Assembly: GCA_004297845.1 (NCBI GenBank)
Contig: SCSP01000074.1
Span: 1-41,486 of the forward strand
Direction: 5' to 3'
DNA: 41,486 nucleotides
Source of the DNA: Bacteroidota bacterium
Lineage (GTDB): Bacteria; Bacteroidota; Bacteroidia; Palsa-948
Shown here: positions 27,643 through 41,486 of the stretch, in pieces
Position numbering within the stretch: the first letter of the stretch is position 1
How the letters are laid out: the number at the start of each line of letters is the position of its first letter
The notes under the pieces: model-generated
The model's database searches: none
What the model saw: only the letters and a program-made list of their open reading frames with translations
What the model was told of the DNA's origin: nothing
Translations under genes and position numbers: made by a program

Positions 27643-28297
27643 TCCAACTTGCGTTCTACTTGCAGTGTCTCTGCTTTTTTGTTGCTGTGACGATAAGGAA
27701 AAAGCCAAAGTGTATTTAGAGGAAAACTACAAAAACTACAGTACCACCCATTCAATAATTATTGATTCCGTCCAAACATATTTGGATTCACTTTTGGAAA
27801 CATTCACTCCTGAATATGTTTACGGATGGACTGCTGATTCATTAGTTTGTATAAACTCTACAAATGACAAACTTTTTGCGGTTACCATTGAGAAACCAAA
27901 AGGAAAAGGGAAAGGATTTTTTGGGGAAGACGCAATGGAATTATTAGGAAAAAAAATAAATGGAAAATGGTATTTTTTCAGAGGTGGTGGCACCTTAACC
28001 ATTCCAAGAGATATGTATGGACTATCTGAATTTAATCCACCATCTGAATTTTTCCTCAGCCAAATTGCCCGAAAAAACATGCTTGAATCTGCATTGGTTA
28101 AAGAAAACGGAGAATATGTTGTAAGCGATGAATGGATAGATAATAAATTCTACAATAACGGTTACGGCTCCAATCTTTCCCGTGAAGAATACGATAAGGT
28201 TCACTGGATGCTCATTATGAGGAAGTGGAAAGAGAAAATAGATACCAATGAGTACAAACCGCTCAAAAAAAACAACTCACAAAAACCCAATACGTAA
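27623..28297 (+). CDS. hypothetical lipoprotein (224 aa)
   Basis: Signal/lipobox-like VLLAVSLLFCCC. Its start overlaps the end of the 1246-aa gene by 20 nt. Confidence 0.6.
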   Translation: MSKREINPTCVLLAVSLLFCCCDDKEKAKVYLEENYKNYSTTHSIIIDSVQTYLDSLLETFTPEYVYGWTADSLVCINSTNDKLFAVTIEKPKGKGKGFFGEDAMELLGKKINGKWYFFRGGGTLTIPRDMYGLSEFNPPSEFFLSQIARKNMLESALVKENGEYVVSDEWIDNKFYNNGYGSNLSREEYDKVHWMLIMRKWKEKIDTNEYKPLKKNNSQKPNT

Positions 28298-28301
28298 GAA
28301 T

Positions 28302-28778
28302 ATGAAAACTACAAATCTAATTTTCATTTTAGCGATCGCAGTCCTCACAATTTCGTCCTGCAAAAAAGAAAAGGAAGAGACTCCAACTACCGGAGGCGGT
28401 GGAGGCCCAACCCAGCCAACTTCCAATTATTATGTTTTTGATGGAGTAACGTATACAGGAAATCTTGGAGCTTTTACAAATTTAACCTACGCATTTGTTT
28501 GTTCCGGCCAGGGCGGTGATCCTCAACTCACACTTTATTTTTGGCCTGCCGTTCCGGGATCTCCTCCCGCAGGAACTTACCCTGTAAAAGACACTTCAGC
28601 AACATCCCCTTTAGACAGCACCAACTGTTCATTGCATATAAAGAAAGCGGGCATAGACTATTATGGTACAGGGGGAGGATATGTCGCAGTGGGCAAAAGC
28701 GGCACAAAAACCACCTATGATTTTACCGCTATTCCGCTTTCAGGCACTAAAACTGTAACTGGTACTTTTATCTATTGA
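28302..28778 (+). CDS. hypothetical lipoprotein (158 aa)
   Basis: I chose the ATG at 28302 (MKTTNLIFILAIAVLTISSCKKEKEE, lipobox ISSC), 4 nt after the previous stop. It has a Gly/Thr-rich linker and then a beta-rich body. Confidence 0.6.
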   Translation: MKTTNLIFILAIAVLTISSCKKEKEETPTTGGGGGPTQPTSNYYVFDGVTYTGNLGAFTNLTYAFVCSGQGGDPQLTLYFWPAVPGSPPAGTYPVKDTSATSPLDSTNCSLHIKKAGIDYYGTGGGYVAVGKSGTKTTYDFTAIPLSGTKTVTGTFIY

Positions 28779-28807
28779 GTGTATATTTGGCTGCTTTTTT
28801 TGACCAA

Positions 28808-31591
28808 ATGACCAGAGATCAGGCGAGAGCCACCATAGAAGGACTTGTTACACGCTTCCGAGAGCATCGCGGGGAATATCACACCGCGGACTACAACGAA
28901 ACCAAGACAAGAATCGGGTTCATCAATCCGTTTTTTCACGCCTTGGGATGGGACGTGAGCCATGAAGAAGACAGGATAGAATCCTACCGCGAAGTAATTC
29001 ACGAAGACAAAGTAAGAGTTAAGGGACAAATGAAAGCGCCCGATTACGGTTTCCGCGTAGCGGGGCAAGGTGAGAAACGTCTGTTCTTTGTTGAAGCAAA
29101 AAAGCCATCCGTTTCACTCAAGACAAACAGGGAAGCATCTTACCAATTACGCATTTACGGACGAAGCGCGCAAGCGCCCGTTTCAATCCTCACCAACTTT
29201 GAAGAATTTATAATTTACGATTGCACAAAAAGTCCTAAACAAAGCGACAGCGCGAGTTCTGCGCGCATCAAGTACATTCATTTCGAGGACTACATAAAAG
29301 AGTTTGATTTTATTTACGACACCTTTTCGCACGAAGCAGTTTACAGCGGACACTTCGATAAATTTGTTCAGAGCGACACCTACAAAAAAGGAACACAAAC
29401 GCTCGATAAAGATTTTGTTGAATCCCTCGACAGTTGGAGAAAATATCTTGCCACAAGCATTGCCCTCGAAAATAAAAAACTAAACGAGGAAGAAATAAAT
29501 TTTGTAGTTCAGCAAACTATTGACCGACTGATTTTTCTTCGCTTCTGCGAAGACCGGGGCGTGGAGCAATTTGCCCAGTTGCAAAAAGCCGTTTCACATG
29601 GCAATTCTTACGACAACTTGTATGATTTATTCAAACGTGCCGATGATAAATATAACAGCGGGTTATTTGATTTCAAGAAAGACACCATTTCGGCAAAGCT
29701 CTCCATTAACAATAAAGTCCTCAAAAAAATTATAGAGGATTTGTATTACCCTTCTCCTTACGTTTTTCGCGTAATGCCGATAGAAGTTCTCGGAAATGCT
29801 TACGAACAGTTTCTCGGAAAAGTAATCCGCATCACCTCTTCGCACAGCGCGCGCATTGAAGTAAAGCCCGAAGTGCGCAAGGCAGGCGGTGTGTATTACA
29901 CGCCTCAATACATTGTGGAGTACATCGTAAAAAATACAGTCGGAAAACTCATTGAAGGAAAAACCCCGAAAGAAATTGAGAAAATTAAAATAGTTGATCC
30001 CGCCTGCGGAAGCGGTTCATTTCTTATCGGTGCGTTTCAGTATTTGGTTCAATACCATGTCAACTGGTATCACCATCATCCCGCAGAAGCTAAAAGAGCA
30101 AAGGCCCTTGCTCCTCCCCCTTCGGGGGAGGCAGGGAGGGGGTCTGGCGGACTTACCACATCCGAGAAAAAGAAAATACTGCTCAATAATATTTTCGGAG
30201 TGGATATTGACGCAAACGCGGTGGAAGTAACCAAACTTAGTTTGCTTCTTAAATGTATGGAAGGCGAAACCGAAGCCAGCATCAAACAGCAGCTAAGTGT
30301 TTTTCACGAGCGCATTCTTCCCGATTTGGATAATAATATTAAAGATGGGAACAGTTTGATTGATACAGATTTTTTAGATGAGTTTAATTTTGGAGATGAT
30401 AAAAAAGCTAAACCATTTTCTTGGAATAAAGCATTTCCTAATGTATTTAAGCAGGGAGGATTTGATGTTGTTATTGGAAATCCACCTTACCTAAAACTTA
30501 CAGCCAATAATATTGAAGATGAAATACTGTCATACTACGAAAAGAAATATAAATCTTATTCAGGAGGAAGTTCAAAAAATTTATTTCAATTATTCTTAGA
30601 AAGGGTTGCACATTTAAAACCGAAATTTTTTTCATTTATTATTCCAGAAGCATTGCTCACAACAGAGAGTAACGGAAAAATCAGAGAAATTATTTTACAG
30701 AACTTCAACATTAATTCAGTAGTAATTTTTGATCACTTTGTATTTGAAGACGCAACGATAGGAACTACAATTGTAGTTGGAGAAAAAGAATCCAAAGAAA
30801 AAACAAAAATTGTTAAAATTGATAATCTTAAAAAACAAAACCTTCTTCAAGAAATAAGATTGAATACAGGCATTAAACCTTGGGATGTTTCTTTAGATGA
30901 TTCAAGTAAAAAGTTTTTCAAGAAGATTTTTAATTCATCGAAGTTGATGGGAGAATTAGTTGTAATGTCAAAGGGAATGGTAGTAAAAGACAGAAATGAT
31001 ATTCTTACTAGATCCCCAACAAAAAAATCTCTGCCGTTTCTATTAGGTAATTGTATGACACGATACAACTACCATTACGATAAATATGCTGAATATGACA
31101 AGCTGGATATTATCGGAGGTACAAGAGATTTAGACAAACATATTTCAATACCTCGTTTGTTAATTCGCAGAACCGGTAGTAATTTATGTGCAACTTATTC
31201 AGAAAAACAAGAACTGATTGAGAGCACAATCTATATTCTTCGCAGTGAAAAAATAAATCTGAAATTTCTTTTAGGTTTACTTAACTCCAAATTACTTTCA
31301 TTCTATTTATCAAAACGACTTATAACAAACGCACAAGGATTTCCGCAAGTGCTGATGGGACAATTAGAACAACTTCCCGTTGTAACAGCAAATGAAAAAA
31401 ATCAAAATGAAATAATAAGACACGTTGATTTACTTTTAAAGCTGAATGAAGAATTAAAAGAAGAAAAGCTCCACAATAAAATTGAGCAAACAAAACAACA
31501 CATTGCCCACAGTGAAGAAAAAATAAATGAATTGGTGTATGAATTGTATGAGCTGACACCGGAGGAAATTAAAATTGTGGAGGAGAAATGA
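28808..31591 (+). CDS. type IIG (single-chain) restriction-modification enzyme: PD-(D/E)xK nuclease + gamma-class N6-adenine methyltransferase + TaqI_C-like specificity region
   Basis: HsdR_N-like 'YNETKTRIGFINPFFHALGWDV' with D79...E96-A-K98 (APDYGF...FFVEAKK). Motif I DPACGSGSF (29996-30022). NIFGVDID. Motif IV NPPY (30479-30490). 'LLGLLNSKLLSFYL', typical of Eco57I-family C-terminal regions. I preferred the ATG at 28808 to the TTG at 28775. Confidence 0.9.
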   Translation: MTRDQARATIEGLVTRFREHRGEYHTADYNETKTRIGFINPFFHALGWDVSHEEDRIESYREVIHEDKVRVKGQMKAPDYGFRVAGQGEKRLFFVEAKKPSVSLKTNREASYQLRIYGRSAQAPVSILTNFEEFIIYDCTKSPKQSDSASSARIKYIHFEDYIKEFDFIYDTFSHEAVYSGHFDKFVQSDTYKKGTQTLDKDFVESLDSWRKYLATSIALENKKLNEEEINFVVQQTIDRLIFLRFCEDRGVEQFAQLQKAVSHGNSYDNLYDLFKRADDKYNSGLFDFKKDTISAKLSINNKVLKKIIEDLYYPSPYVFRVMPIEVLGNAYEQFLGKVIRITSSHSARIEVKPEVRKAGGVYYTPQYIVEYIVKNTVGKLIEGKTPKEIEKIKIVDPACGSGSFLIGAFQYLVQYHVNWYHHHPAEAKRAKALAPPPSGEAGRGSGGLTTSEKKKILLNNIFGVDIDANAVEVTKLSLLLKCMEGETEASIKQQLSVFHERILPDLDNNIKDGNSLIDTDFLDEFNFGDDKKAKPFSWNKAFPNVFKQGGFDVVIGNPPYLKLTANNIEDEILSYYEKKYKSYSGGSSKNLFQLFLERVAHLKPKFFSFIIPEALLTTESNGKIREIILQNFNINSVVIFDHFVFEDATIGTTIVVGEKESKEKTKIVKIDNLKKQNLLQEIRLNTGIKPWDVSLDDSSKKFFKKIFNSSKLMGELVVMSKGMVVKDRNDILTRSPTKKSLPFLLGNCMTRYNYHYDKYAEYDKLDIIGGTRDLDKHISIPRLLIRRTGSNLCATYSEKQELIESTIYILRSEKINLKFLLGLLNSKLLSFYLSKRLITNAQGFPQVLMGQLEQLPVVTANEKNQNEIIRHVDLLLKLNEELKEEKLHNKIEQTKQHIAHSEEKINELVYELYELTPEEIKIVEEK
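30113..30142. repeat. GC-rich hairpin + purine-tract mini-element, copy D (inside the R-M gene)
   Basis: cctccccc|ttc|gggggagg (perfect 8-bp stem, 3-nt loop), then ca + gggaggggg. Translates as PPPSGEAGRGSG, between methyltransferase motif I and NIFGVDID. Confidence 0.65.
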
Positions 31592-31597
31592 AAAATT

Positions 31598-31654
31598 CAA
31601 CCACTGTGTGGTTGTAATGCAGCAGATGGTTTTACCCTGCATTTTATGCAGGGT
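31598..31654. repeat. two perfect hairpins just downstream of the R-M stop codon
   Basis: caaccac-tgt-gtggttg (31598-31614, 7-bp stem) and accctgca-tttta-tgcagggt (31634-31654, 8-bp stem). Neither has a T-tail, so they are not classical terminators. Confidence 0.7.
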
Positions 31655-31837
31655 TATTCAAATTAAATCCTTTCAGGATTTGCAGGAAAATAAATATTAC
31701 AAAAAAATCCGAAGAGCTTAAATTTGCAGGGTCATTCAGATTAAACTCTTTCAGGATTTGCAGAAAAATAAATATTACTAAAAAGTCCGAAAGGTTTAAA
31801 TTTGCAGGGTCATTCAGATTAAACTCTTTCAGGATTT
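31648..31837. repeat. 78-bp tandem repeat, about 2.4 copies
   Basis: Unit A is 31648-31725 and unit B 31726-31803, both starting 'gcagggt.attca.attaaa..ctttcaggatttgcag.aaaataaatattac'. Partial unit C (31804-31837) is identical to the first 34 nt of unit B. Confidence 0.85.
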
Positions 31838-31864
31838 TGAAAAGATTTGTAAATACAGCAGGCA

Positions 31865-31951
31865 AAGCCCGAAGGGCTTGAACATGAATAACCCCGAATG
31901 AAATTCGGGGAAAGAAGACGAACAACAAAACACACAACTCCGAAGGAGTTG
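31865..31951. repeat. three GAA-triloop hairpins immediately upstream of the Y1 transposase start
   Basis: aagccc-gaa-gggctt (31865-31879), ccccgaat-gaa-attcgggg (31892-31910), caactcc-gaa-ggagttg (31935-31951). Confidence 0.7.
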
Positions 31952-31966
31952 AATAAATACGGTAAA

Positions 31967-32413
31967 ATGAGTACCTATACCCAAATCCTATATCAAATTG
32001 TTTACAGCACCAAGAACAGAGAACATACTCTTGATGCTGATAACCGCAAGGAGCTATTCAAGTATATATGGGGCATTCTGAAAAACAAAAAATGCCATTT
32101 ATACCAAATGGGAGGGGTATCCGACCATCTGCATATTGTAACGCATTTGCATCCCTCCATTGCTCTTGCTTCATTAATAAAAGATATCAAACTGGCAAGC
32201 ACTGAACATATCAAAGCTAAAAATCTTTTCCCGGCATTTGCAGGTTGGCAGGATGGCTATGGGGCTTTTACCTATTCCATTAAAGAAAAGGACAGGTTGA
32301 TTGAATATGTAAAACATCAGGAAGAACATCATAAAACAAAAACTTTCAGAGAGGAATACATTGAACTACTGAAAGAACATGGGATTGAATTTGATGAAAA
32401 ATACTTGCTGTAA
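31967..32413 (+). CDS. IS200/IS605-family Y1 (HUH) transposase, RAYT-like (148 aa)
   Basis: 'MSTYTQILYQIVYSTKNRE' N-terminus. HUH motif DHLHIV (H54-L-H56, 32126-32134). C-terminal helix 'IEYVKHQEEHH' with the candidate catalytic Tyr114. I chose the ATG at 31967 because the track's 31898 extension runs through the hairpins. Confidence 0.9.
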   Translation: MSTYTQILYQIVYSTKNREHTLDADNRKELFKYIWGILKNKKCHLYQMGGVSDHLHIVTHLHPSIALASLIKDIKLASTEHIKAKNLFPAFAGWQDGYGAFTYSIKEKDRLIEYVKHQEEHHKTKTFREEYIELLKEHGIEFDEKYLL

Positions 32414-32420
32414 AAACATT

Positions 32421-32515
32421 CAACCGCTTTGCGGTTGTGTGGTGTGCGGCATTGTTATTCACCGCATTGTATGCGGTGTTATTCACATTTGACCTTCGGT
32501 CGCAACCTGCGGTTG
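32421..32515. repeat. REP-like hairpin cluster downstream of the Y1 transposase
   Basis: caaccgc-ttt-gcggttg (32421-32437), caccgcat-tgt-atgcggtg (32460-32478), caacc-tgc-ggttg (32503-32515). Confidence 0.7.
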
Positions 32516-32550
32516 TCTTCGGGATTAAACAATAGAATTCGAAAAATAAA

Positions 32551-32952
32551 ATGAGCATCGAAATCCAAATACGCCAAGCACTTGAACGCGCAGAAGAATA
32601 TATTGCGTATCTCGCTACCAGACCCGATAAGGAACTTGCCAAAAGGCTTGATATTTTTCATAAGCAATTCATAATCGCTGAAAAAGAAAAACTCACATCT
32701 TCCCTTGAACTGTTAGAAATATGGCGCAGTCAGACAATTCAGGCGCGGATTCGCAAAGCCGAAAATAATATTGCCGATGTACCGAGCGAAATGGAACTGG
32801 CTATTGCCGACATGGAATCCTTTGAAGAAAAAGCAGAACAGCGTCAGGAAATATTGAATGAAGCAAGTTCTACTGTTATTGAAGAAGCGGAGCAACCTCA
32901 AGAAAAAGAAAAGAATTCTCCCGATAATCCCGAACAGCTTTCACTGTTTTAA
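32551..32952 (+). CDS. hypothetical helical protein with acidic C-terminal tail (133 aa), first gene of a three-gene operon
   Basis: ATG ORF with heptad-like helical sequence. The tail is ...VIEEAEQPQEKEKNSPDNPEQLSLF. A 13-nt gap separates it from the next gene. Confidence 0.6.
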   Translation: MSIEIQIRQALERAEEYIAYLATRPDKELAKRLDIFHKQFIIAEKEKLTSSLELLEIWRSQTIQARIRKAENNIADVPSEMELAIADMESFEEKAEQRQEILNEASSTVIEEAEQPQEKEKNSPDNPEQLSLF

Positions 32953-32965
32953 ATAAAAAAGAAAA

Positions 32966-34228
32966 ATGCCTACAAAAATCAAATCACTTAATTGTCCAAA
33001 TGAACTTAAAGAGATCGAGAAAAAAGTTCACGAAGAAGTAAATAAATTTATTTCCGAATTTTCAATCTTAGAGAAAGATACTGTTCATGTTTTAACTGAT
33101 TTAAGAACCAACGCATTTTTTTGTGAGTGTTATATTTCAGCAAAAGAATTAATTGAGAATAGTACAATTGATGTTCCGCTTGACCCTGAAAATCAACCCG
33201 AATACAGAGCTAACAGAGACGCACAACCAGAACATTCCGCATATCAAAAAATGCTTGATGATGCCAAAAGCAAAAGAATGTTTAGCAATATCGTTTGCGA
33301 ATACAATACAAATTATCAAGCAAATAAACCCATTAAAATTATCGGAGGGCAACACCGATTTTTGGCAATTGAATCTGCCCATAGTAGCGGAATAAATGAA
33401 TATCATGGTATAAAAATTTATTTCTCTTTAGATAAACATCAGCGGTTAGATGTTCAATTAATATCAAATACAAATATTTCAGTTTCAACTGACTTACTTG
33501 ATAGAATGTTTGAAACCTCAAAAGGTCCTGAATTAAGAACATGGAGCCAAGCCGTTGGGTTGCTGGACAAAGGGGAAGATTTTTCTGATAAAAAACAACG
33601 AGGTAGTCAAATCTCTGTTAGAGGGGCGCGAACATTCATTCTAAATTATTACGAAGGCAAAAATATTGAAGATAAACTTTTTGATAAAAAAGATACGACA
33701 CCAGTATTAGCAAGAACAGGAATGATAGATGAAAGTTGGGAAAAATTACGCTCTAATAAAGATGTTTGGATAGACAAAGAATTAGTTGAGGCTGGTAAAC
33801 AGTTTTCAAAATTGCATAAGGCACAAAAAGATTATTTCAAAAAAAATAAGAAAGAGCAAGTAGAGTTTTCTGAAAAAGCAATTAGTTATTCTGTGCTTGC
33901 ATCGTGGGCTTATGTATCAGGCGTTTTGCATAATAATAAGGTTAGATTAAGCAGACATTTTCAACTCGCAGATATAAAAAATACTGATCCTCTATCAACA
34001 ACACTGCTTGCCAAAGCAAGACATAAAACTGACGCGGAAAATTACAGGGGCTTGGGTACACGAACAGAACCAAAGGACAGAGGAAGATTAACAGAGTTAT
34101 TTTTCTTGCATGCTGAAAAAGGAGGTGGATTTAATAAACCTATGGTTGATTTAGCAATAAAAAAATATCATGCAAAACAATCTAACTTAGAAGTGCTTGA
34201 AGCAGAAAAGAAATTAGGAGATGAATGA
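32966..34228 (+). CDS. ParB/sulfiredoxin-fold protein of the DGQHR/DndB-like type (420 aa)
   Basis: 'KPIKIIGGQHRFLAIE' (G127-R131, nt 33344-33358), preceded by 'YQKMLDDAKSKRMFSNIVCEY'. The size and layout resemble DndB-like proteins. Confidence 0.75.
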   Translation: MPTKIKSLNCPNELKEIEKKVHEEVNKFISEFSILEKDTVHVLTDLRTNAFFCECYISAKELIENSTIDVPLDPENQPEYRANRDAQPEHSAYQKMLDDAKSKRMFSNIVCEYNTNYQANKPIKIIGGQHRFLAIESAHSSGINEYHGIKIYFSLDKHQRLDVQLISNTNISVSTDLLDRMFETSKGPELRTWSQAVGLLDKGEDFSDKKQRGSQISVRGARTFILNYYEGKNIEDKLFDKKDTTPVLARTGMIDESWEKLRSNKDVWIDKELVEAGKQFSKLHKAQKDYFKKNKKEQVEFSEKAISYSVLASWAYVSGVLHNNKVRLSRHFQLADIKNTDPLSTTLLAKARHKTDAENYRGLGTRTEPKDRGRLTELFFLHAEKGGGFNKPMVDLAIKKYHAKQSNLEVLEAEKKLGDE

Positions 34229-34763
34229 ATTTGATATATTCTGCTCAAATCTTTTAGAAGAATCCAAACGATTCTTGGAAAAGTCGAAAAATGAGAAAAA
34301 TGAAGATGGGAAAAAAGCGTATCAACATTCATGTTTATTGCTCTCAATCTGTTCTTTAGAAGCATATATAAATGGAATTTCTGAAGAAATGACACTCGCT
34401 AATGGCTTTCCAATACATTTTAAAGGCATTTTATTGGAAAAAGAAATTCGCATTGATAAAGGAGAGTTTATTTTAAGTGACACATTAAAAATGTCAAGAC
34501 TGACTGAAAGAATAGAAATTCTCTATAGAAGATATTCACGAAAAAAAATTTCAGATTCTAACGAATGGTGGGCAATACTCAAACAGGGGATTGATTTAAG
34601 AAATAAAATTACGCATCCAAAAGAAAATATTGAACTTACTGATATACTCCTTGAAAAAATATTGCAATCTGTTATAGAATGTTTAACTGCTATTTATAGG
34701 GCTGTTTATAAAAATAATTTTCCAAAGTCGAATTTATCCCTTACCTCAAAACTGAATTTCTAA
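34221..34763 (+). CDS. HEPN-domain protein (putative RNase), 180 aa
   Basis: All-helical-looking sequence. 'GIDLRNKITHPKE' gives R127-x4-H132 (nt 34599-34616), the Rx4-6H HEPN signature. An 8-nt start/stop overlap (ATGAATGA) links it to the previous gene. Confidence 0.7.
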   Translation: MNEFDIFCSNLLEESKRFLEKSKNEKNEDGKKAYQHSCLLLSICSLEAYINGISEEMTLANGFPIHFKGILLEKEIRIDKGEFILSDTLKMSRLTERIEILYRRYSRKKISDSNEWWAILKQGIDLRNKITHPKENIELTDILLEKILQSVIECLTAIYRAVYKNNFPKSNLSLTSKLNF

Positions 34764-34980
34764 TTTCTGAAAGGTCTCTCAATACCCATTTTCTTCTTGT
34801 TTCCAGCCTTTTAAACACTCATCACACTTTTTGCAATCTCCTATCGTTATAACCAATAACTCAACTTGACGATGATGTAATGTTTACGCGAATTAAAAAG
34901 TAATACTAACCAAAAAAGACCTGAAAGCAAAGTATCAGGCATCGCGTAAAATGTCAAGTACAAATGAAACTGGGCAAGCT

Positions 34981-36075
34981 TTACCTATTCAAAACAATCT
35001 TTCGGGTAATCGTTCCTTCTTTGGAGTTAATACGAAGGAAATAAATACCGTTAGGCAGGCAGGAGAAGTCTAAACTGCCATCCTTGCCCGGCAGCGCCAG
35101 GGAGCTGAGTTTTTCGCCTGTTGCCAAGTAAATTTCTGCCGTATACTCCTTAACGGAAGCAGGCATTATAATGTTTACTTTTCCAGCCGAAGGATTCGGA
35201 TATGCCTTCACAGCGCTGAGGGAAGGGTTTTCAGCCAATCCGCCAATCACAGGCAGGGTTTTGAGCCAGGTGATGCTCTGGATGGTATCTCCCGCGGTGC
35301 TGTCAAATTCAAGCACCGAGAATCCCAACCCGCTTGCCCACCAGGCAAAATGCCAGTTACTATCCAGCGTTTCAGCCGCAAAAGACCATTGCGAAGTGAT
35401 ACTATTGCGAATCCAGATACTATCGTGCGTTACCACTTTTCCTTTTTGGCGAAGGCAGTTGTAAGTGCCTAACGGAGTGGTTATACTCCCCCACGCATCT
35501 GTTAACACATTCTTATCCTTTTCCTCTTTTATTCGTACTGAGTCTATCGGGAACGAGGAATAGGGAGCAGTTAAAGTAAATCCCGAAGTGTTTTGAAAAG
35601 TAGAATTATAGGTATTGGGAAACGATGTTATTTCTTCATTGGGGTTCATTTGCAGTACTCCTGACCCCTGACCGGTAAAATCGGCATAGGCTCCCATAAT
35701 AAATAAACCGGTTGCAGTATTTTTCAGATAGTATTCTGTTCCGTCAGGAAACAGAATAGCCAGGTTTGAGGTTGGAAAATTTGAGCCGCTGGATAGCCAG
35801 GCCGGGTTTGTAAAAGTCATGGTATCAATGGTGTTACTGAGCAAAGTTGAGAAATCCCATGTTTTATTTGCCCCTGAAGGTCCGGGGTTGATAGCGCCCA
35901 CAGTAAGTGATTTTACCGTATCGGTAGCCTGGTAAAGAACTTTTCCTGCGAGAACAACATCGTACGGATAGATGGTGATCTGCGCATTGGAAACTACAAT
36001 CCCGCAGGTTGCAAATGTTAAAAGTGTCCCGATGAAACGAGGACTCGTCCGTTGGCGAATAATTGTTTTTTTCAT
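34981..36075 (-). CDS. T9SS cargo protein of unknown function (type-A C-terminal sorting domain)
   Basis: N-terminal signal/anchor. The C-terminus 'VKAYPNPSAGKVNIIMP...GIYFLRINSKEGTITRKIVLNR' matches the Por-secretion-tail pattern. Confidence 0.8.
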   Translation of the reverse strand: MKKTIIRQRTSPRFIGTLLTFATCGIVVSNAQITIYPYDVVLAGKVLYQATDTVKSLTVGAINPGPSGANKTWDFSTLLSNTIDTMTFTNPAWLSSGSNFPTSNLAILFPDGTEYYLKNTATGLFIMGAYADFTGQGSGVLQMNPNEEITSFPNTYNSTFQNTSGFTLTAPYSSFPIDSVRIKEEKDKNVLTDAWGSITTPLGTYNCLRQKGKVVTHDSIWIRNSITSQWSFAAETLDSNWHFAWWASGLGFSVLEFDSTAGDTIQSITWLKTLPVIGGLAENPSLSAVKAYPNPSAGKVNIIMPASVKEYTAEIYLATGEKLSSLALPGKDGSLDFSCLPNGIYFLRINSKEGTITRKIVLNR

Positions 36076-36104: not shown

Positions 36105-37265
36105 TTATTTTTCTGAGATTATTTTTTTAGTGTCAGATACTTCCCCTGCCTGCATCCGGTAAAAGTAGGATCCTGCTGGATATTTATTCATATCCGCTGT
36201 AATCTCATATTCCCCTTTCAACTTCTCTTCATTTACCAACACAGCTATTTCTTTTCCTGTTACATCAAACAACTTTATCACAATTTTTTCCCTGCCCGGC
36301 ACAGCGTATTTAATAATGATCTGACCGATGCCCGGATTAGGAATGTTCTGGTCAAGGCGATATCCTTTTTCAATAAAAGATAAATTATTGACAGATAACA
36401 AGCCGGCAGTTGAGAAAGCCCAAACAGTGGAATAATTACTCCAACTCCCTCCATTGTTGGCTTTGACTCTCCAATAAAATGTTGTTGAGTCAGGCAGTCC
36501 AACTACCGTATTGTAATTAACCCCCACATTCACGGATTTGAACAAGGCAGTGAATCCGGTGTCCGTGGAAACATCCAGGTGATACATTACATCATCATTT
36601 TTTTTAAGCCATTTCAACTGCTTCACTGATCCTACATTGTAAGACCAGTTCGAGGGAAGATCAAGCACCGGTACGGAAGCCAGCGTATCATTTGGCCCTG
36701 TATAGGTAACAAACATTTCAATTTTCCTGAGCGGGCAATCATTTCCATCCCTGAGTTCGCTTACGATCGTATCCGCAAAATTCATTCCCGATGTTACCTG
36801 CCCGTAAATGGTATAATTGTTATCAAGACTTGGCTGCGGAGCCACGCATATATAAAACTGTGAATTGGCGCTGTTAATGTTCGCATCGCGCGCTGCAGCC
36901 AGTGTTCCTCTTTTATGTGTGGCAGCGCTGAACTCAGCATTCACCGTAGGTTGGTTGGGATCACCTTGCCCCCATGTTGATTTAGGTCCGTGTCTGGAGT
37001 TAGGATCACCTCCCTGTATCACAAAACCGGGAATTACGCGGTGAAAAGCAGTGGTATCGAAGAAAACCTTGCTTATGAGGCTGTCAAAATTCTTAACGTG
37101 ATTGGGGGCTATTGCCGGAAAAAGCTCCACATTAATATTTCCCAGAAAAATTCCGTTACGGGTGGTGAGTATCTGGTACCGTGGCTTGCCAGTAAATTGC
37201 GCTTTACTTTCTGCCGCCGAAAGGAGAGCAATGAGAACAGCGACCAATATTTTTCTGTATGGCAT
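36105..37265 (-). CDS. cyclophilin-type peptidyl-prolyl cis-trans isomerase fused to an FN3-like module and a T9SS type-A sorting domain
   Basis: Signal peptide. Cyclophilin motifs FHRVIPGFVIQGGDP and NSANSQFYI. 'TTFYWRVKANNGGSWSNYSTVWAFST'. C-terminal 'LDQNIPNPGIGQIIIKY...GSYFYRMQAG'. Confidence 0.9.
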   Translation of the reverse strand: MPYRKILVAVLIALLSAAESKAQFTGKPRYQILTTRNGIFLGNINVELFPAIAPNHVKNFDSLISKVFFDTTAFHRVIPGFVIQGGDPNSRHGPKSTWGQGDPNQPTVNAEFSAATHKRGTLAAARDANINSANSQFYICVAPQPSLDNNYTIYGQVTSGMNFADTIVSELRDGNDCPLRKIEMFVTYTGPNDTLASVPVLDLPSNWSYNVGSVKQLKWLKKNDDVMYHLDVSTDTGFTALFKSVNVGVNYNTVVGLPDSTTFYWRVKANNGGSWSNYSTVWAFSTAGLLSVNNLSFIEKGYRLDQNIPNPGIGQIIIKYAVPGREKIVIKLFDVTGKEIAVLVNEEKLKGEYEITADMNKYPAGSYFYRMQAGEVSDTKKIISEK

Positions 37266-37702: not shown

Positions 37703-40700
37703 TTATCTGACAAGTGTAACATTACCATCAATATACTTCGAGGTTCCGGTAATGAAATTTATATTGAGGGTATAAAAGAACACGGCAGGATCCACGGGTT
37801 TTCCGTGAAACCTTCCATCCCACTTTTCGGTTTGATCAGTTGTAAAAAATACTTTTTGCCCCCAACGGTTATACACCGTAAATTCCATATCCAATATACA
37901 TGGGTTTCTTACATAAAAGAGATCATTAAAACCATCATTATTAGGAGAGAATGCGCTTGGAACAAAAATATCTTCACATTCCATGGTAACATTAACAATA
38001 ACCGTATCCAAAGAAGTACATCCGTTTATATCTATTGTGGTAACTGTATAAATAGTGGTGACTGTAGGGTTTGCAGCAGGATTTGCACAGGTATCGCAGC
38101 TTAATCCTGTGGTTGGGCTCCAGGTATACGTTCCGGTGCTTGTGAGTCCGGTTAATGTGGTGGTTGCACCAATGTTAATTGTATAAGGAGACGCTGTTGC
38201 ATCAGCCGTTGGCGATGGGTTTACATTCACATTGATAACAGCAAAATCGCTGCAAGCGCCATTGGAAGCTGTTACCGTATAGCTTGTATTTGCAACAGGA
38301 TTAACAGAAATTGAAGGGGTTATTTGACCTGTATTCCATGAATACATGCTACCGCCTGACGCGGTAAGCATGGAAAGATCACCACTGCAGATAACCGTAT
38401 CTCCGGTGACAATTGCATTTACCAGAGGAAGCACATTTATGAGCGCAGAGGCATCATCGGTGCAGCCGTTCGCATCGGTTGTTGTAACAGTATATGTGGT
38501 TGAAGAGGCAGGACATACGCTGATAACAGAAGAGGTAGATCCTCCCGGTGCCCAAACATACGATAGTCCACCGGTTGCAGATAAAGTACTGCAGCTTCCG
38601 ATGCAGATACTCATTTGAGTAGCCGTTAATGCAGCAGATGGAACGGCATTAACAGTAATGGAAATACTTGCCACAGAACTGCAACCTCCGTTTGAAACAG
38701 TTACCGTATACGTAATATTTGCCGTTGAAGAAGAAACAGGATTTGAAATATTCGAATTGTCTAATCCTGTTGCAGGGGACCATACATAGGAAGCGCCTCC
38801 GCTTGCAGTAAGCGAAGTGGATGATCCGGAACACATCGTGGTACTTCCTCCTATAGCGGTAACACTTGCAGTAGGCTGGGCAATTACGCTTACGGAATAG
38901 GTATCACTGTCCGTACAGCCTGATGGGTTTGTCGCCACTACAGAATAACCTGTTGCAACAGTAGGTGAAACAACAATGGAGGTGGTGGTTTCAGCGGTAT
39001 TCCAAACATAGGTGCCCCCACCGGATGCTGTAAGCGTTGCCGAACTTCCTGAACAGATACTGCTACTTGTTCCGCTGATCAATGCGGTAACAGAGCTTAC
39101 ATTGACCGTAAAGTTTGCTGTGTTTGTGCATCCGTTGCCATCGGTTACTGTAACAGAATACCCGCTAGTAATTGTAGGGTTTACCGTAATTATGGCATTT
39201 GTATTTCCGACATTCCACGAATAAGTACCTCCACCCGTTGCGGTGAGAGTGGATGAAGAACCCAAACAAATTGTGCTGTTTCCGCTTATACCGGCCGCAG
39301 GCAATGAATTTACATTCACTGTAACGACATCCGAGGCGGTTCCGCAAACATCCGTAATAGTTACTGTATAATCAGTTGTACCCGTTGGATTAGCAACAGG
39401 ATTTGCACAGGTTGTGCAATTTAATCCGGAAGCAGGGGACCAACTGTAAGTGCTGCCTCCGCTGGCATTAAGGGGTGCGCTTGCACCAATACATATTGTA
39501 GCATCCGCTCCCGCATTTACTGAGGGGGTTGCGGTAATAGAAACTGTTACACTATCACTTACGCTTCCGCAACTATTAGTAACTGTGACCGTATACGTAA
39601 TATTTGACGTAGGGTTCGCAACCGGGTTGGCACAAGTGGTACAGCTTAAATTCGCAGCAGGAGTCCATGCGTAAGTACCGCTCCCTGTAACACTCAGTGA
39701 AGTACTTGCTCCCGCGCAGATAGAAACATCAGGACTTGGACTTGCGGTGGGCAGAGGACTTGGATTCACGGTGATCACATCACTGTCTGTGCAGCCGCTT
39801 CCATCCGTTGCAATCACGGTATAAGTGGTTGAGGTTATCGGATTCGCTGTAATAGGATTCGTGATCGCTCCGGTGCTCCACGAATAACTTACGCCTCCGG
39901 ATGCGGTTAGTGTGGTTGTTTGCCCGCTGCATACTGTTGTATTTCCGGTGATACCTGCAACAGGGTTCGCTATGGTAACTGTAACATCATCGCTGTTTGT
40001 ACCGCACGAAGCTGTAATGCTGAATGTATAGGTAGTTGTTGTTGCTGTAGGAGTAGCCACCGGGCTCGCACAAGAGATACAACTTAATGTTCCGGATGGC
40101 GACCACACAAATGTGCCGCTTCCTGTTCCCGTTAAAGTAGTACTTGTTCCGGCCCCGGGACATATAGTAACATCCGGCCCGGCATAGGCAGAAGGCAATG
40201 CGGGATAGGTAAGGGAAATTTCATCGGTGGCTGATCCGCAATTATTAGTAACAGTAAGCGTGTAAGTGATTACAGCGGTGGAGGTGGGAGTAGCCACCGG
40301 ATTGGCACAAGTAGTGCAATTTAAATAAGTTGACGGAGACCACAGGAATGTACCGTTACCGGTTCCATTAAAGGTGGTATTGTCTCCCAGACAAACTGAA
40401 ACATCCGCCCCCGCACTGGCTATGGGTTGAGGATAAACTGTTACGCTGTAGCTGGATGAATTGGTGCAGGTATTTGCATCTGTTCCTACTACACTGTAAT
40501 TCGTAGAGTTTGTTGGAGCAACAGAAACATTTGTGGTTGTTGCTCCACCGGGAGACCATACATACGATATACCGCCCGAAGCAGTGAGCGTGGTAGGGAG
40601 ACCTGAACATACCGTATTTGTCCCGCTCACAGTTACGGTGGGCGTTGCATATACCGTTACACTATAACTGGTAGTAACCGTACAACTGTTTGCACCTGTG

Positions 40701-41486
40701 GCAACAACCGTATAATTTGTAGAAGTTGTAGGGCTGGCTACCGGATTTGAAATAATAGCGCTATTTAAACTTCCGGAAGGAGACCACACATAGCTGCTTG
40801 CTCCGGAAACATTGAGCGTTGTATTTGTTCCTATACAAATTGTATTTGTTCCACTGAGAGTAAGTGAGGGTATTGCATTTATAGTTACAACTGTGGTAGC
40901 ATTTACTGCTGAACATGGAGCAGGAGAAGCAACTGTGTAGGTAACAGTATAGGTACCGGCTGTACTTGTGCCTGGCGTGATCGTTCCGCTTGCGTCCATC
41001 ATTAACCCTGCGGGTGAAAATGTATATGTCCCGCCTGCTGTTCCTGTTAATGCTACTGTTTGAGTGCCGGCAGAAGTACACCAAGGTGAACCTGTATACG
41101 ATATGCTTGCGGTAGAAGGGTTAACGACAGTTACTGTAACGGTAGCAGGCAAACTTGTACAAAACACACCATCAGTAACAATAACCGTATAGGTAGTTGT
41201 AGTAGTTGGGGTGGCAACTGTATTATTAGTGGTACTAGCGGTAGTGGTATTCGCAGGATTTAAGCCACCGGTAGTTGGATTCTGTGTCCATGCATATGAA
41301 TAATTGGGAGAAGTGGGACCAGTAACTGTTGCCGTTAATGTGGTACTTTGCCCATTACATATTGTAAAATTTGCAGAAACGCTGATAGTTGGTGCGATAC
41401 ACTGTATTTTATTCTGAGAAAAAGAGGCCGCAACCCCTGCTACCGCAAAAACTAATAGAAAGAAAACTCTTTTTAATGAAATTTGC
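37703..41486 (-). CDS. giant Ig-like-repeat surface protein with gliding-motility-associated (T9SS type-B) C-terminal domain; start codon at or just beyond the window end
   Basis: The frame stays open upstream of the track's Met (41167) to nt 41485. It reads (M)QISLKRVFFLLVFAVAGVAASFSQ, a signal peptide, and the leftover 'g' at 41486 fits an ATG whose 'AT' lies outside the window. There are more than 12 Cys-containing repeats of about 75 aa. The C-terminus 'FVPSAFSPNNDGFNDLFYV...YNRWGQKVF...WDG......VFFY' is the CHU_C/type-B CTD signature. Confidence 0.9.
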   Translation of the reverse strand, partial: QISLKRVFFLLVFAVAGVAASFSQNKIQCIAPTISVSANFTICNGQSTTLTATVTGPTSPNYSYAWTQNPTTGGLNPANTTTASTTNNTVATPTTTTTYTVIVTDGVFCTSLPATVTVTVVNPSTASISYTGSPWCTSAGTQTVALTGTAGGTYTFSPAGLMMDASGTITPGTSTAGTYTVTYTVASPAPCSAVNATTVVTINAIPSLTLSGTNTICIGTNTTLNVSGASSYVWSPSGSLNSAIISNPVASPTTSTNYTVVATGANSCTVTTSYSVTVYATPTVTVSGTNTVCSGLPTTLTASGGISYVWSPGGATTTNVSVAPTNSTNYSVVGTDANTCTNSSSYSVTVYPQPIASAGADVSVCLGDNTTFNGTGNGTFLWSPSTYLNCTTCANPVATPTSTAVITYTLTVTNNCGSATDEISLTYPALPSAYAGPDVTICPGAGTSTTLTGTGSGTFVWSPSGTLSCISCASPVATPTATTTTYTFSITASCGTNSDDVTVTIANPVAGITGNTTVCSGQTTTLTASGGVSYSWSTGAITNPITANPITSTTYTVIATDGSGCTDSDVITVNPSPLPTASPSPDVSICAGASTSLSVTGSGTYAWTPAANLSCTTCANPVANPTSNITYTVTVTNSCGSVSDSVTVSITATPSVNAGADATICIGASAPLNASGGSTYSWSPASGLNCTTCANPVANPTGTTDYTVTITDVCGTASDVVTVNVNSLPAAGISGNSTICLGSSSTLTATGGGTYSWNVGNTNAIITVNPTITSGYSVTVTDGNGCTNTANFTVNVSSVTALISGTSSSICSGSSATLTASGGGTYVWNTAETTTSIVVSPTVATGYSVVATNPSGCTDSDTYSVSVIAQPTASVTAIGGSTTMCSGSSTSLTASGGASYVWSPATGLDNSNISNPVSSSTANITYTVTVSNGGCSSVASISITVNAVPSAALTATQMSICIGSCSTLSATGGLSYVWAPGGSTSSVISVCPASSTTYTVTTTDANGCTDDASALINVLPLVNAIVTGDTVICSGDLSMLTASGGSMYSWNTGQITPSISVNPVANTSYTVTASNGACSDFAVINVNVNPSPTADATASPYTINIGATTTLTGLTSTGTYTWSPTTGLSCDTCANPAANPTVTTIYTVTTIDINGCTSLDTVIVNVTMECEDIFVPSAFSPNNDGFNDLFYVRNPCILDMEFTVYNRWGQKVFFTTDQTEKWDGRFHGKPVDPAVFFYTLNINFITGTSKYIDGNVTLVR

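Follow-up and report, generated by a model that had tools for sequence, protein, structure and literature searches.

The window analysed here is a stretch of 41,486 nucleotides (nt), contig SCSP01000074.1 of assembly GCA_004297845.1, from a Bacteroidota bacterium. Its subject is a pair of overlapping plus-strand open reading frames (ORFs), ORF2 (32966–34228, 420 amino acids, aa) and ORF3 (34221–34763, 180 aa), encoding a predicted ParB/sulfiredoxin (Srx)-fold protein and a predicted HEPN RNase, respectively. On comparative sequence grounds, ORF2–ORF3 is an obligate, translationally coupled, co-evolving and horizontally mobile two-gene cassette. We favor a reading, at a probability of about 0.55, in which the pair is a system of the abortive-infection type, with the HEPN RNase gated by ORF2; for this system we infer a complex, NTPase and RNase activities, a trigger and a defence phenotype. 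The gene just upstream, ORF1 (32551–32952, plus strand, 133 aa), had been grouped with the pair in a preliminary description of this DNA, and is treated below with the restriction–modification (R-M) gene that it follows elsewhere.

Conserved pairing of ORF2 and ORF3

A scan of one genome per species returned 80 loci from about 14 phyla, with ORF2 proteins 45–65% identical to that of the window. The hosts fall in Acidobacteriota, Bacteroidota, Bacillota, Planctomycetota, Alphaproteobacteria, Gammaproteobacteria, Actinomycetota, Nitrospirota, Elusimicrobiota, Chloroflexota, Verrucomicrobiota, Ignavibacteriota, Armatimonadota, Gemmatimonadota and Binatota. Hidden Markov models (HMMs) built from our own alignments place an ORF3-type HEPN gene directly downstream of ORF2 in 75 of 82 loci, or 75 of the 78 in which there is room for it; the seven loci lacking one consist of four contig ends and three truncated, decayed ORF2 copies. 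The pair is also found in all four IMG/VR loci. The most divergent standard-length ORF2 member, P0279 (L094), retains an overlapping ORF3-type HEPN gene (E=1.3e-33), whose motif reads 'RNGLVH'.

The junction between the two genes is tightly constrained. For 73 of the 75 loci, the distance from the stop of ORF2 to the start of ORF3 falls between -26 and +5 nt, with modes at -1, -4 and -8, and these distances fit translational coupling. Pairwise-identity matrices of the two proteins are correlated (r=0.66; Mantel 0 of 999), and we therefore regard ORF2 and ORF3 as inherited and evolving as a unit. All-versus-all clustering of neighbouring ORFs, out to 4 kb from the pair at each of the 75 loci, disclosed no third conserved gene, the commonest neighbour family reaching 4/75. 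A 147-aa gene upstream in L001 was considered as a partner and rejected, being a Zn-ribbon protein unrelated to ORF1.

Within the window, the three plus-strand ORFs form the packed unit that had been described, and their coordinates and lengths match the ORF list exactly. Between the TAA stop of ORF1 and the ATG at 32966 lie 13 nt. At the next junction, the 8-nt plus-strand sequence ATGAATGA (34221–34228) holds both the stop of ORF2 and the start of ORF3, an overlap of the translationally coupled kind. The motifs quoted earlier, 'KPIKIIGGQHRFLAIE' in ORF2 and 'DLRNKITHP' in ORF3, are both present in the translations, and ORF1, ORF2 and ORF3 are probably co-transcribed here. The ORF2 start is ambiguous: the public gene call (P0001, same contig) is 404 aa long, 16 residues short of the ATG-initiated ORF. 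If that call is right, the ORF1–ORF2 gap becomes ~61 nt instead of 13 nt (32966–33013). We favor the ATG at 32966 because relatives of 419–421 aa cover 99–100% of the query and the N-terminus is confidently modelled.

The cassette stands out in composition. ORF2 and ORF3 together have a GC content of 0.32, and 0.22 at third codon positions (GC3), against a background of 0.425 +/- 0.02 (z = -5.1) computed from 319 equal-sized windows outside 28775–34763, the lowest of which reached 0.37. The foreign-looking low GC, read earlier from a single 60-nt sample, thus holds by window statistics. A search for repeats around ORF2–ORF3 yielded no convincing insertion scars. An Rfam scan of 28000–36000 (E<=0.1) matched no RNA family, and hence nothing that would point to an RNA antitoxin of the type III kind.

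Predicted folds of the two proteins

The AlphaFold2 (AF2) model of ORF2 (predicted local distance difference test, pLDDT, 86.7) has an N-terminal half that mixes alpha and beta elements and a C-terminal half built of helices alone; we delineate these as a ParB/Srx-fold N-terminal domain (residues ~1–200) and a helical C-terminal domain (~200–420). The GGQHR motif (G127, G128, Q129, H130 and R131) is invariant among 36 aligned family sequences, and in the model it follows strand E123–127 and opens helix H129–140. Versions of this motif in the fold are GERR in ParB, GGCHR in Srx, DGQHR in DndB and DGQQR in DUF262. Also invariant in the family alignment are H353, D356, N359, R361, G362, G364, R366, K370, R372, G373 and R374 of a basic loop (H353–R374), which is modelled at low confidence. 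Neither the alignment nor the model contains an HNH motif in the C-terminal half.

The top Foldseek matches of the model in the PDB are the ParB–CTP structure 7bm8 (probability 0.91), pNOB8 ParB, PadC, KorB and sulfiredoxin (3cyi, target TM-score 0.51), with 1xw3 as a further matching sulfiredoxin structure. Among the predicted viral structures of BFVD, near-full-length matches were obtained with E-values of 3e-6 to 1e-3 and probability 1.0. The ten at E<=1e-3 are GmrSD-N/DUF262, 'DNA-sulfur modification-associated' (DndB) and ParB/Sulfiredoxin proteins, and the closest folds are those of GmrSD N-terminal-domain (DUF262) proteins.

Profile searches of the window protein gave fainter signals. 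TIGR03187 (DGQHR) matched ORF2 at 14.8 bits (E=0.018; cut-off 58.85) over residues 118–159 only, PF14072 (DndB) did not match it at E<=0.1, and the sole Pfam match, DUF5959, was at chance level (E=0.16), with no match to DUF262 or DUF1524. Across the 36 relatives, TIGR03187 weakly matched 32 (best 1.9e-4), PF14072 matched eight, all below threshold (best P0093, 27.5 bits against a cut-off of 29.1), and TIGR03233 matched one (E=0.011). ORF2 had been assigned to the DndB/DGQHR-like branch of the ParB/Srx fold, and the model, Foldseek, BFVD and the weak profile matches bear this out. As modelled, ORF2 is a ParB/Srx-fold, DndB/GmrS(DUF262)-like protein outside the curated DndB and DGQHR families, and a putative NTP-binding protein in which GGQHR would serve as a phosphate-binding-type motif. 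A DndB-like protein different from ORF2 bound ATP and GTP (10.1101/2025.10.10.680097).

At the 90% clustering level, homologues of ORF2 number more than 1,400. When 1.84 billion representative proteins were scanned in full with HMMER, only 307 ORF2-like clusters (50% identity) were retrieved at E<=1e-3, for which reason we consider the family tight and isolated. When the ORF2 and ORF3 profiles were compared with PDB sequences, only a chance match to PsaN and de novo designed helical repeats were returned; these were rejected as compositional artefacts.

ORF3 is matched by PF18735 (HEPN_RiboL-PSP) at 21.9 bits (E=1.8e-4), below the gathering score of 28.4, over profile positions 16–189 of 191. 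The same model matches 20 of 38 ORF3 relatives at E<=0.01 (best E=6e-8), and many homologues bear a precomputed PF18735 label. R127, N128 and H132 ('RNxxTHPK') are invariant in the 38 aligned homologues, and the putative RNase site reads R127-N-K-I-T-H132. In the AF2 model (pLDDT 89.5; predicted template modelling score, pTM, 0.85), R127 lies within helix H115–130 and residues 74–89 form a beta-hairpin insert. The top specific Foldseek matches in the PDB are HEPN AF_0298 (2hsb) and the HepT toxins 5yep, 7bxo and 6m6w, with probabilities of 0.9–0.96, target TM-scores of 0.57–0.69 and weak E-values (0.2–1). The HEPN assignment with R127-x4-H132 is thereby borne out by PF18735, the invariant residues, the AF2 model and Foldseek; by model and motif, ORF3 is a HEPN protein, probably of the RiboL-PSP type, with an intact catalytic motif, and a predicted RNase.

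ORF3 homologues of Alphaproteobacteria (L058, L061, L064–L066, L069, L070 and L074) score lower against the ORF3 profile. The C-terminal tail 'GLxSKLxF', otherwise invariant, is missing in L064, L069 and L074, the three inspected. An idea that the tail, S176...F180 in the window protein, is a docking or modification site was set aside on account of this tail-less alphaproteobacterial subclade. Some loci in or near this group carry a frameshifted ORF2 or ORF3, through either real decay or assembly error.

Proposed ORF2-gated HEPN activity and its alternatives

In the reading that we prefer, ORF2 and ORF3 would be made in fixed proportion and would form a complex holding the HEPN active site inactive. 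By means of its basic helical domain and NTP pocket (GGQHR), ORF2 would monitor DNA or the state of nucleotides. Upon an invader signal, it would release or rearrange the HEPN dimer, and the freed HEPN protein might cleave cellular and/or invader RNA until growth stops, as in abortive infection. The logic proposed earlier, with a ParB-like sensor controlling a HEPN effector, is plausible and is part of this reading. A bolder form is put forward tentatively: gating of an RNase by a ParB/Srx NTPase may constitute a new mechanistic class of HEPN control, with ORF2 as a portable 'nuclease-licensing' module, as its alternative partners (HNH, a Dam MTase and an MvaI/BcnI REase) suggest. In one version ORF2 may sense invader DNA in a GmrSD-like manner and license the cleavage of RNA instead of DNA; in another it may use an NTP to modify HEPN covalently, much as type VII antitoxins do but with a ParB fold.

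The gene neighbourhood of the pair elsewhere is mixed. In favor of a defence role, its nearest neighbours, counted per family, include GajA, LmuB, type I, II, III and IIG R-M systems, PD-T7-4 and PDC candidates, together with integrases, resolvases and transposases. Several observations weigh against ORF2 gating an abortive-infection RNase. Many of the nearest neighbours are housekeeping genes, among them ThiC, DXP synthase, KARI, GyrB, RuvC and EF-G. Tblastn of ORF2 detected the pair in none of 72,556 plasmids and 50,697 phage genomes; given only the four IMG/VR contigs besides, we dropped the idea of typical plasmid or phage cargo. The matches of ORF2 and ORF3 to solved structures are weak by E-value (0.05–1), and the ORF2 fold rests mainly on predicted viral structures and sub-threshold profile matches. 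Finally, conservation is higher in ORF2 than in ORF3 (0.53 versus 0.41 mean pairwise identity), which is unusual for a fast-evolving sensor of invaders and fits an enzyme better.

The very high conservation of ORF2 and the many housekeeping neighbours are also what a role outside biological conflict would lead one to expect, for example in RNA processing or as a nucleoid-associated regulator. We judge such a role very improbable: the pair is patchily spread over its phyla at the identities given above, its 307 clusters are few among the representatives scanned, its composition is foreign, decayed copies occur, and the copy in the window sits in a setting of defence and insertion sequence (IS) genes.

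A toxin–antitoxin module, in which ORF3 would be the toxin and ORF2 its antitoxin, acting by binding (type II-like) or by NTP-dependent covalent modification (as in type VII) without any need to sense invaders, is the main rival, though a doubtful one. An upstream partner followed by HEPN with overlapping stop and start is the layout of HEPN/minimal nucleotidyltransferase (MNT) pairs, and HepT toxins are among the closest solved structures to ORF3. The scattered chromosomal contexts, housekeeping neighbours included, would suit such a module, as would the conservation of ORF2 if it is an enzyme; the ParB/Srx fold includes ATP-dependent phosphotransferases such as sulfiredoxin, matched here through 3cyi and 1xw3. 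An extension of ~50 aa at the N-terminus of some ORF2-like proteins, ribbon–helix–helix (RHH)-like by eye, would fit an autoregulating antitoxin; these extended variants, however, occur without HEPN. At 420 aa, and more conserved than the supposed toxin, ORF2 is also unlike classical antitoxins, and addiction modules are usually common on plasmids, where the pair was not found. The decayed loci point the same way. ORF2 is frameshifted next to an intact ORF3 that includes the Rx4H motif in L064, L074 and L075, a state that should kill the cell if ORF3 were constitutively toxic (assembly errors are possible), and ORF3 is broken or lost with ORF2 kept in L069, L050, L060 and L068, so that decay runs in both directions.

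Comparison with the type VII HEPN-MNT (HepT–MntA) pairs themselves separates the two systems further. Both consist of two overlapping genes with HEPN second. The partner here is of the ParB/Srx fold, however, and not a minimal nucleotidyltransferase, and ORF3 is probably of the RiboL-PSP type, said to lie nearer AbiD/AbiF, with its beta-hairpin insert. HepT has an AMPylated Tyr after Rx4H, the modification being made by MntA; the ORF3 sequence has no Tyr in that position. The listed neighbour families of the pair loci include no nucleotidyltransferase family and no Dnd, Dpd or Ssp family, which upholds the earlier statement that dnd/dpd genes and an MNT-type antitoxin are lacking beside the pair.

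Rare ORF2-like proteins are associated with other nucleases. In P0281, P0294 and P0307, an N-terminal HNH endonuclease domain is recognized by PHROG HNH families and, marginally above threshold, by Pfam HNH; the conserved C-terminal 'ERGR' motif is altered in these fusions. No HEPN gene follows P0281 (L090, 5001–6542), whose surroundings resemble a Mu-like prophage (GemA, AAA_22, N6_N4 MTase), or P0307 (L093, 5001–6626), inserted on its own into a purine-biosynthesis cluster, with DinB_2 on one side and purS on the other. The extension introduced above ('KIQIVLDDE.E.KFR') occurs in P0285 and P0288, and also in P0284 and P0289. An extended variant is followed in L091 (1397–3995) by a D12 (Dam) methyltransferase and a protein that is RelE-like by eye, and in L092 (778–3048) by an MvaI/BcnI-type restriction endonuclease; HEPN is absent from both loci. 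This hints at a link between the extended branch and R-M systems. Such HNH-fused or R-M-adjacent variants do without HEPN, and this small sample suggests that the ORF2 core is a DNA/NTP-sensing, nuclease-coupled module that works with interchangeable nucleases and is not a nuclease itself.

The same variants could be taken to support a restriction-like system in which ORF2 itself is the effector, as a ParB-type DNase or nickase or by depleting NTPs, with HEPN as a secondary, RNA-directed prong. Anantharaman et al. (2013; PMC3710099) treated ParB domains beside HEPN in this way and listed a ParB-like fold among the endoDNase domains that recurrently associate with HEPN, ATP-regulated nicking by ParB/Srx proteins is cited in PMC12839542, and the folds closest to ORF2 are the GmrSD N-domains of type IV restriction enzymes. 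We nonetheless find this arrangement improbable. No methyltransferase or other gene for self-protection is linked to the main family, and the HNH fusions suggest that the ORF2 core has no nuclease activity of its own. Moreover, in the GmrSD architecture cited in PMC12839542, the ParB-like domain is the NTPase or regulatory part and the nuclease a separate HNH-type domain.

A ParB-like NTPase module that controls a nuclease is the plan common to our preferred reading and to GmrSD, BrxU and SspE, which combine a DUF262 ParB-like NTPase with a DUF1524 HNH-type nuclease, an architecture cited in PMC12839542. ORF2 resembles these enzymes in its fold, closest to the GmrSD N-domain, in its class of motif (GGQHR, compared with the DGQQR of DUF262) and in the rare HNH fusions of its relatives. 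It differs in that the effector would be a separate HEPN RNase and not a fused HNH DNase, in that ORF2 misses the DUF262 and DUF1524 models, and in that the only HNH domains are those fused to the N-terminus of the rare variants. With DndB and DpdB, ORF2 shares a ParB/Srx N-domain joined to a helical C-domain over ~350–420 aa, a Q-H-R motif core and the weak PF14072 and TIGR03187 matches of its family (8/36 and 32/36). Unlike DndB, it has an invariant G in place of the D, all its family's matches fall below curated thresholds, dndACDE, dpd and ssp genes are missing from its neighbourhood, and the HMMER scan with its 307 clusters misses the large DndB family. By family and gene content, the pair is neither a Dnd/Dpd/Ssp component, nor a GmrSD enzyme, nor a HEPN-MNT pair.

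The module had been called undescribed, which stands in part. None of the PADLOC-DB v2.0.0 families matched ORF2 or ORF3 at E<=1, so the pair has no name in that collection. Our literature search, which covers few subscription-journal papers, found neither a name nor an experiment for it, and it is not described in work on Ishtar, the Dnd reappraisal, BREX diversity or the diversity of the ParB-CTPase fold. The linkage itself was noted computationally in 2013: Table 1 of Anantharaman, Makarova, Burroughs, Koonin and Aravind (Biol Direct 8:15; PMC3710099) contains the entry 'Ribo L-PSP-HEPN ... operon with ParB', and that paper predicted a conflict-system role; the HEPN family named there is Pfam PF18735. 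Entry and cassette agree in a HEPN protein (here probably of the PF18735 family), an operon with a ParB-superfamily gene and a conserved Rx4-6H motif. They differ in that the entry is a single table line whose ParB partner is undescribed and may not belong to the ORF2 family, and that says nothing of a DndB/GmrS-like nature, a C-terminal domain, obligate coupling or distribution; the L-PSP fusion that gave the family its name is absent from ORF3. The logic of an NTPase partner and a HEPN effector is likewise familiar.

ORF1, the type IIG gene and the setting in the window

ORF1 is helical by composition and has an acidic C-terminal tail. It has no significant match among Pfam, PADLOC and other family models, the PADLOC DruC hit (E=0.039) being at chance level. 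We collected 45 homologues, short acidic proteins, and all those with an organism name come from metagenome-assembled genomes of Bacteroidetes/Bacteroidota. In six of six independent loci (contexts retrieved from L002, L003/L004, L005, L096/L097 and L098/L099), the homologue comes directly after a type IIG R-M gene, of one family with that of the window, and has no ParB or HEPN gene with it. The R-M genes preceding it are 78%, 66% and 57% identical to that of the window in L003, L002 and L005, respectively. In three loci the start of the homologue runs into the 3' end of its R-M gene, and a single variable gene separates the two in L003/L004 and L005.

This distribution bears on the proposal that the three genes form one system, in which ORF1 would serve the ParB–HEPN pair as a regulator, an antitoxin or a DNA mimic. 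The same-strand spacing of 13 nt, the probable co-transcription in the window and the acidic tail are what recommended it. Run over more than 80 ORF2/ORF3 loci, the ORF1 HMM matched the window alone and was absent from the other pair loci (at least 80), and other cargo follows ORF1 elsewhere. Membership of ORF1 in a three-gene unit accordingly fails, a role for it in controlling the HEPN system becomes very unlikely, and we regard a three-gene system as extremely improbable. Judged by its recurrent position, ORF1 is a conserved downstream companion of the type IIG R-M gene, outside the ParB–HEPN cassette, and its family looks like an unrecognized accessory or regulator of type IIG enzymes. The apparent three-gene operon therefore resolves into an R-M and ORF1 module beside a separately acquired two-gene cassette.

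The position 10–20 nt past ORF1 is occupied by a putative AbiC gene (PF16872) in L096 (5425–6708) and by an unknown 262-aa gene in L098 (5421–6209). In the window it is taken by the ParB–HEPN pair (32953 onward), which thus holds the place of the putative AbiC gene, and no tightly abutting gene follows ORF1 in L002, L003/L004 or L005. These arrangements suggest a variable slot for defence cargo attached to the R-M/ORF1 module.

The R-M gene of the window (28775–31591, plus strand) encodes one protein that combines a nuclease region at its N-terminus with an N6-MTase/Eco57I domain and, for specificity, a TaqI_C domain (Pfam HSDR_N, N6_Mtase, Eco57I, MmeI_Mtase and TaqI_C; PDLC03604 REase_MTase_IIG, E=1.2e-181). 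It is separated from ORF1 by an inserted block of 840 nt (31598–32437, plus strand). The block carries an IS200/Y1-type transposase gene (31898–32413, plus strand; Y1_Tnp E=5e-20; NF033573 56.8 bits against a cut-off of 55), preceded by 2.4 copies of a 78-nt repeat (31647–31837), and similar CAACC(N7)GGTTG hairpins mark both of its ends (31598–31614 and 32421–32437). The transposase also weakly matches the model of REP-associated tyrosine transposases. The defence-island setting seen earlier is confirmed as a small low-GC islet with the type IIG R-M gene and the IS200-like transposase. Farther along, a minus-strand ORF of 1,154 aa (37703–41167) contains many ~80-aa repeats with 'C..C(A/S)NPVA.P'-type motifs. 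The neighbouring ORFs 34981–36075 and 36105–37265, the latter with a cyclophilin-like middle, end in C-terminal sequences similar to it, and all three resemble the secreted or surface proteins that Bacteroidota typically make.

For future experiments, cloning of 'the operon' should mean ORF2–ORF3, with ORF1 studied together with the type IIG enzyme, where it may prove to be an unrecognized accessory factor. Should the pair prove to act in defence or abortive infection, it would add a compact (1.8 kb) two-gene system distributed across about 14 bacterial phyla. The roles of the ParB/Srx NTPase fold beyond chromosome segregation, as in DndB, DpdB, GmrS and SspE, are still being worked out, and the invariant GGQHR motif and basic loop, together with the HNH and R-M variants, offer testable ideas on how this fold may couple the sensing of nucleotides or DNA to nucleases.

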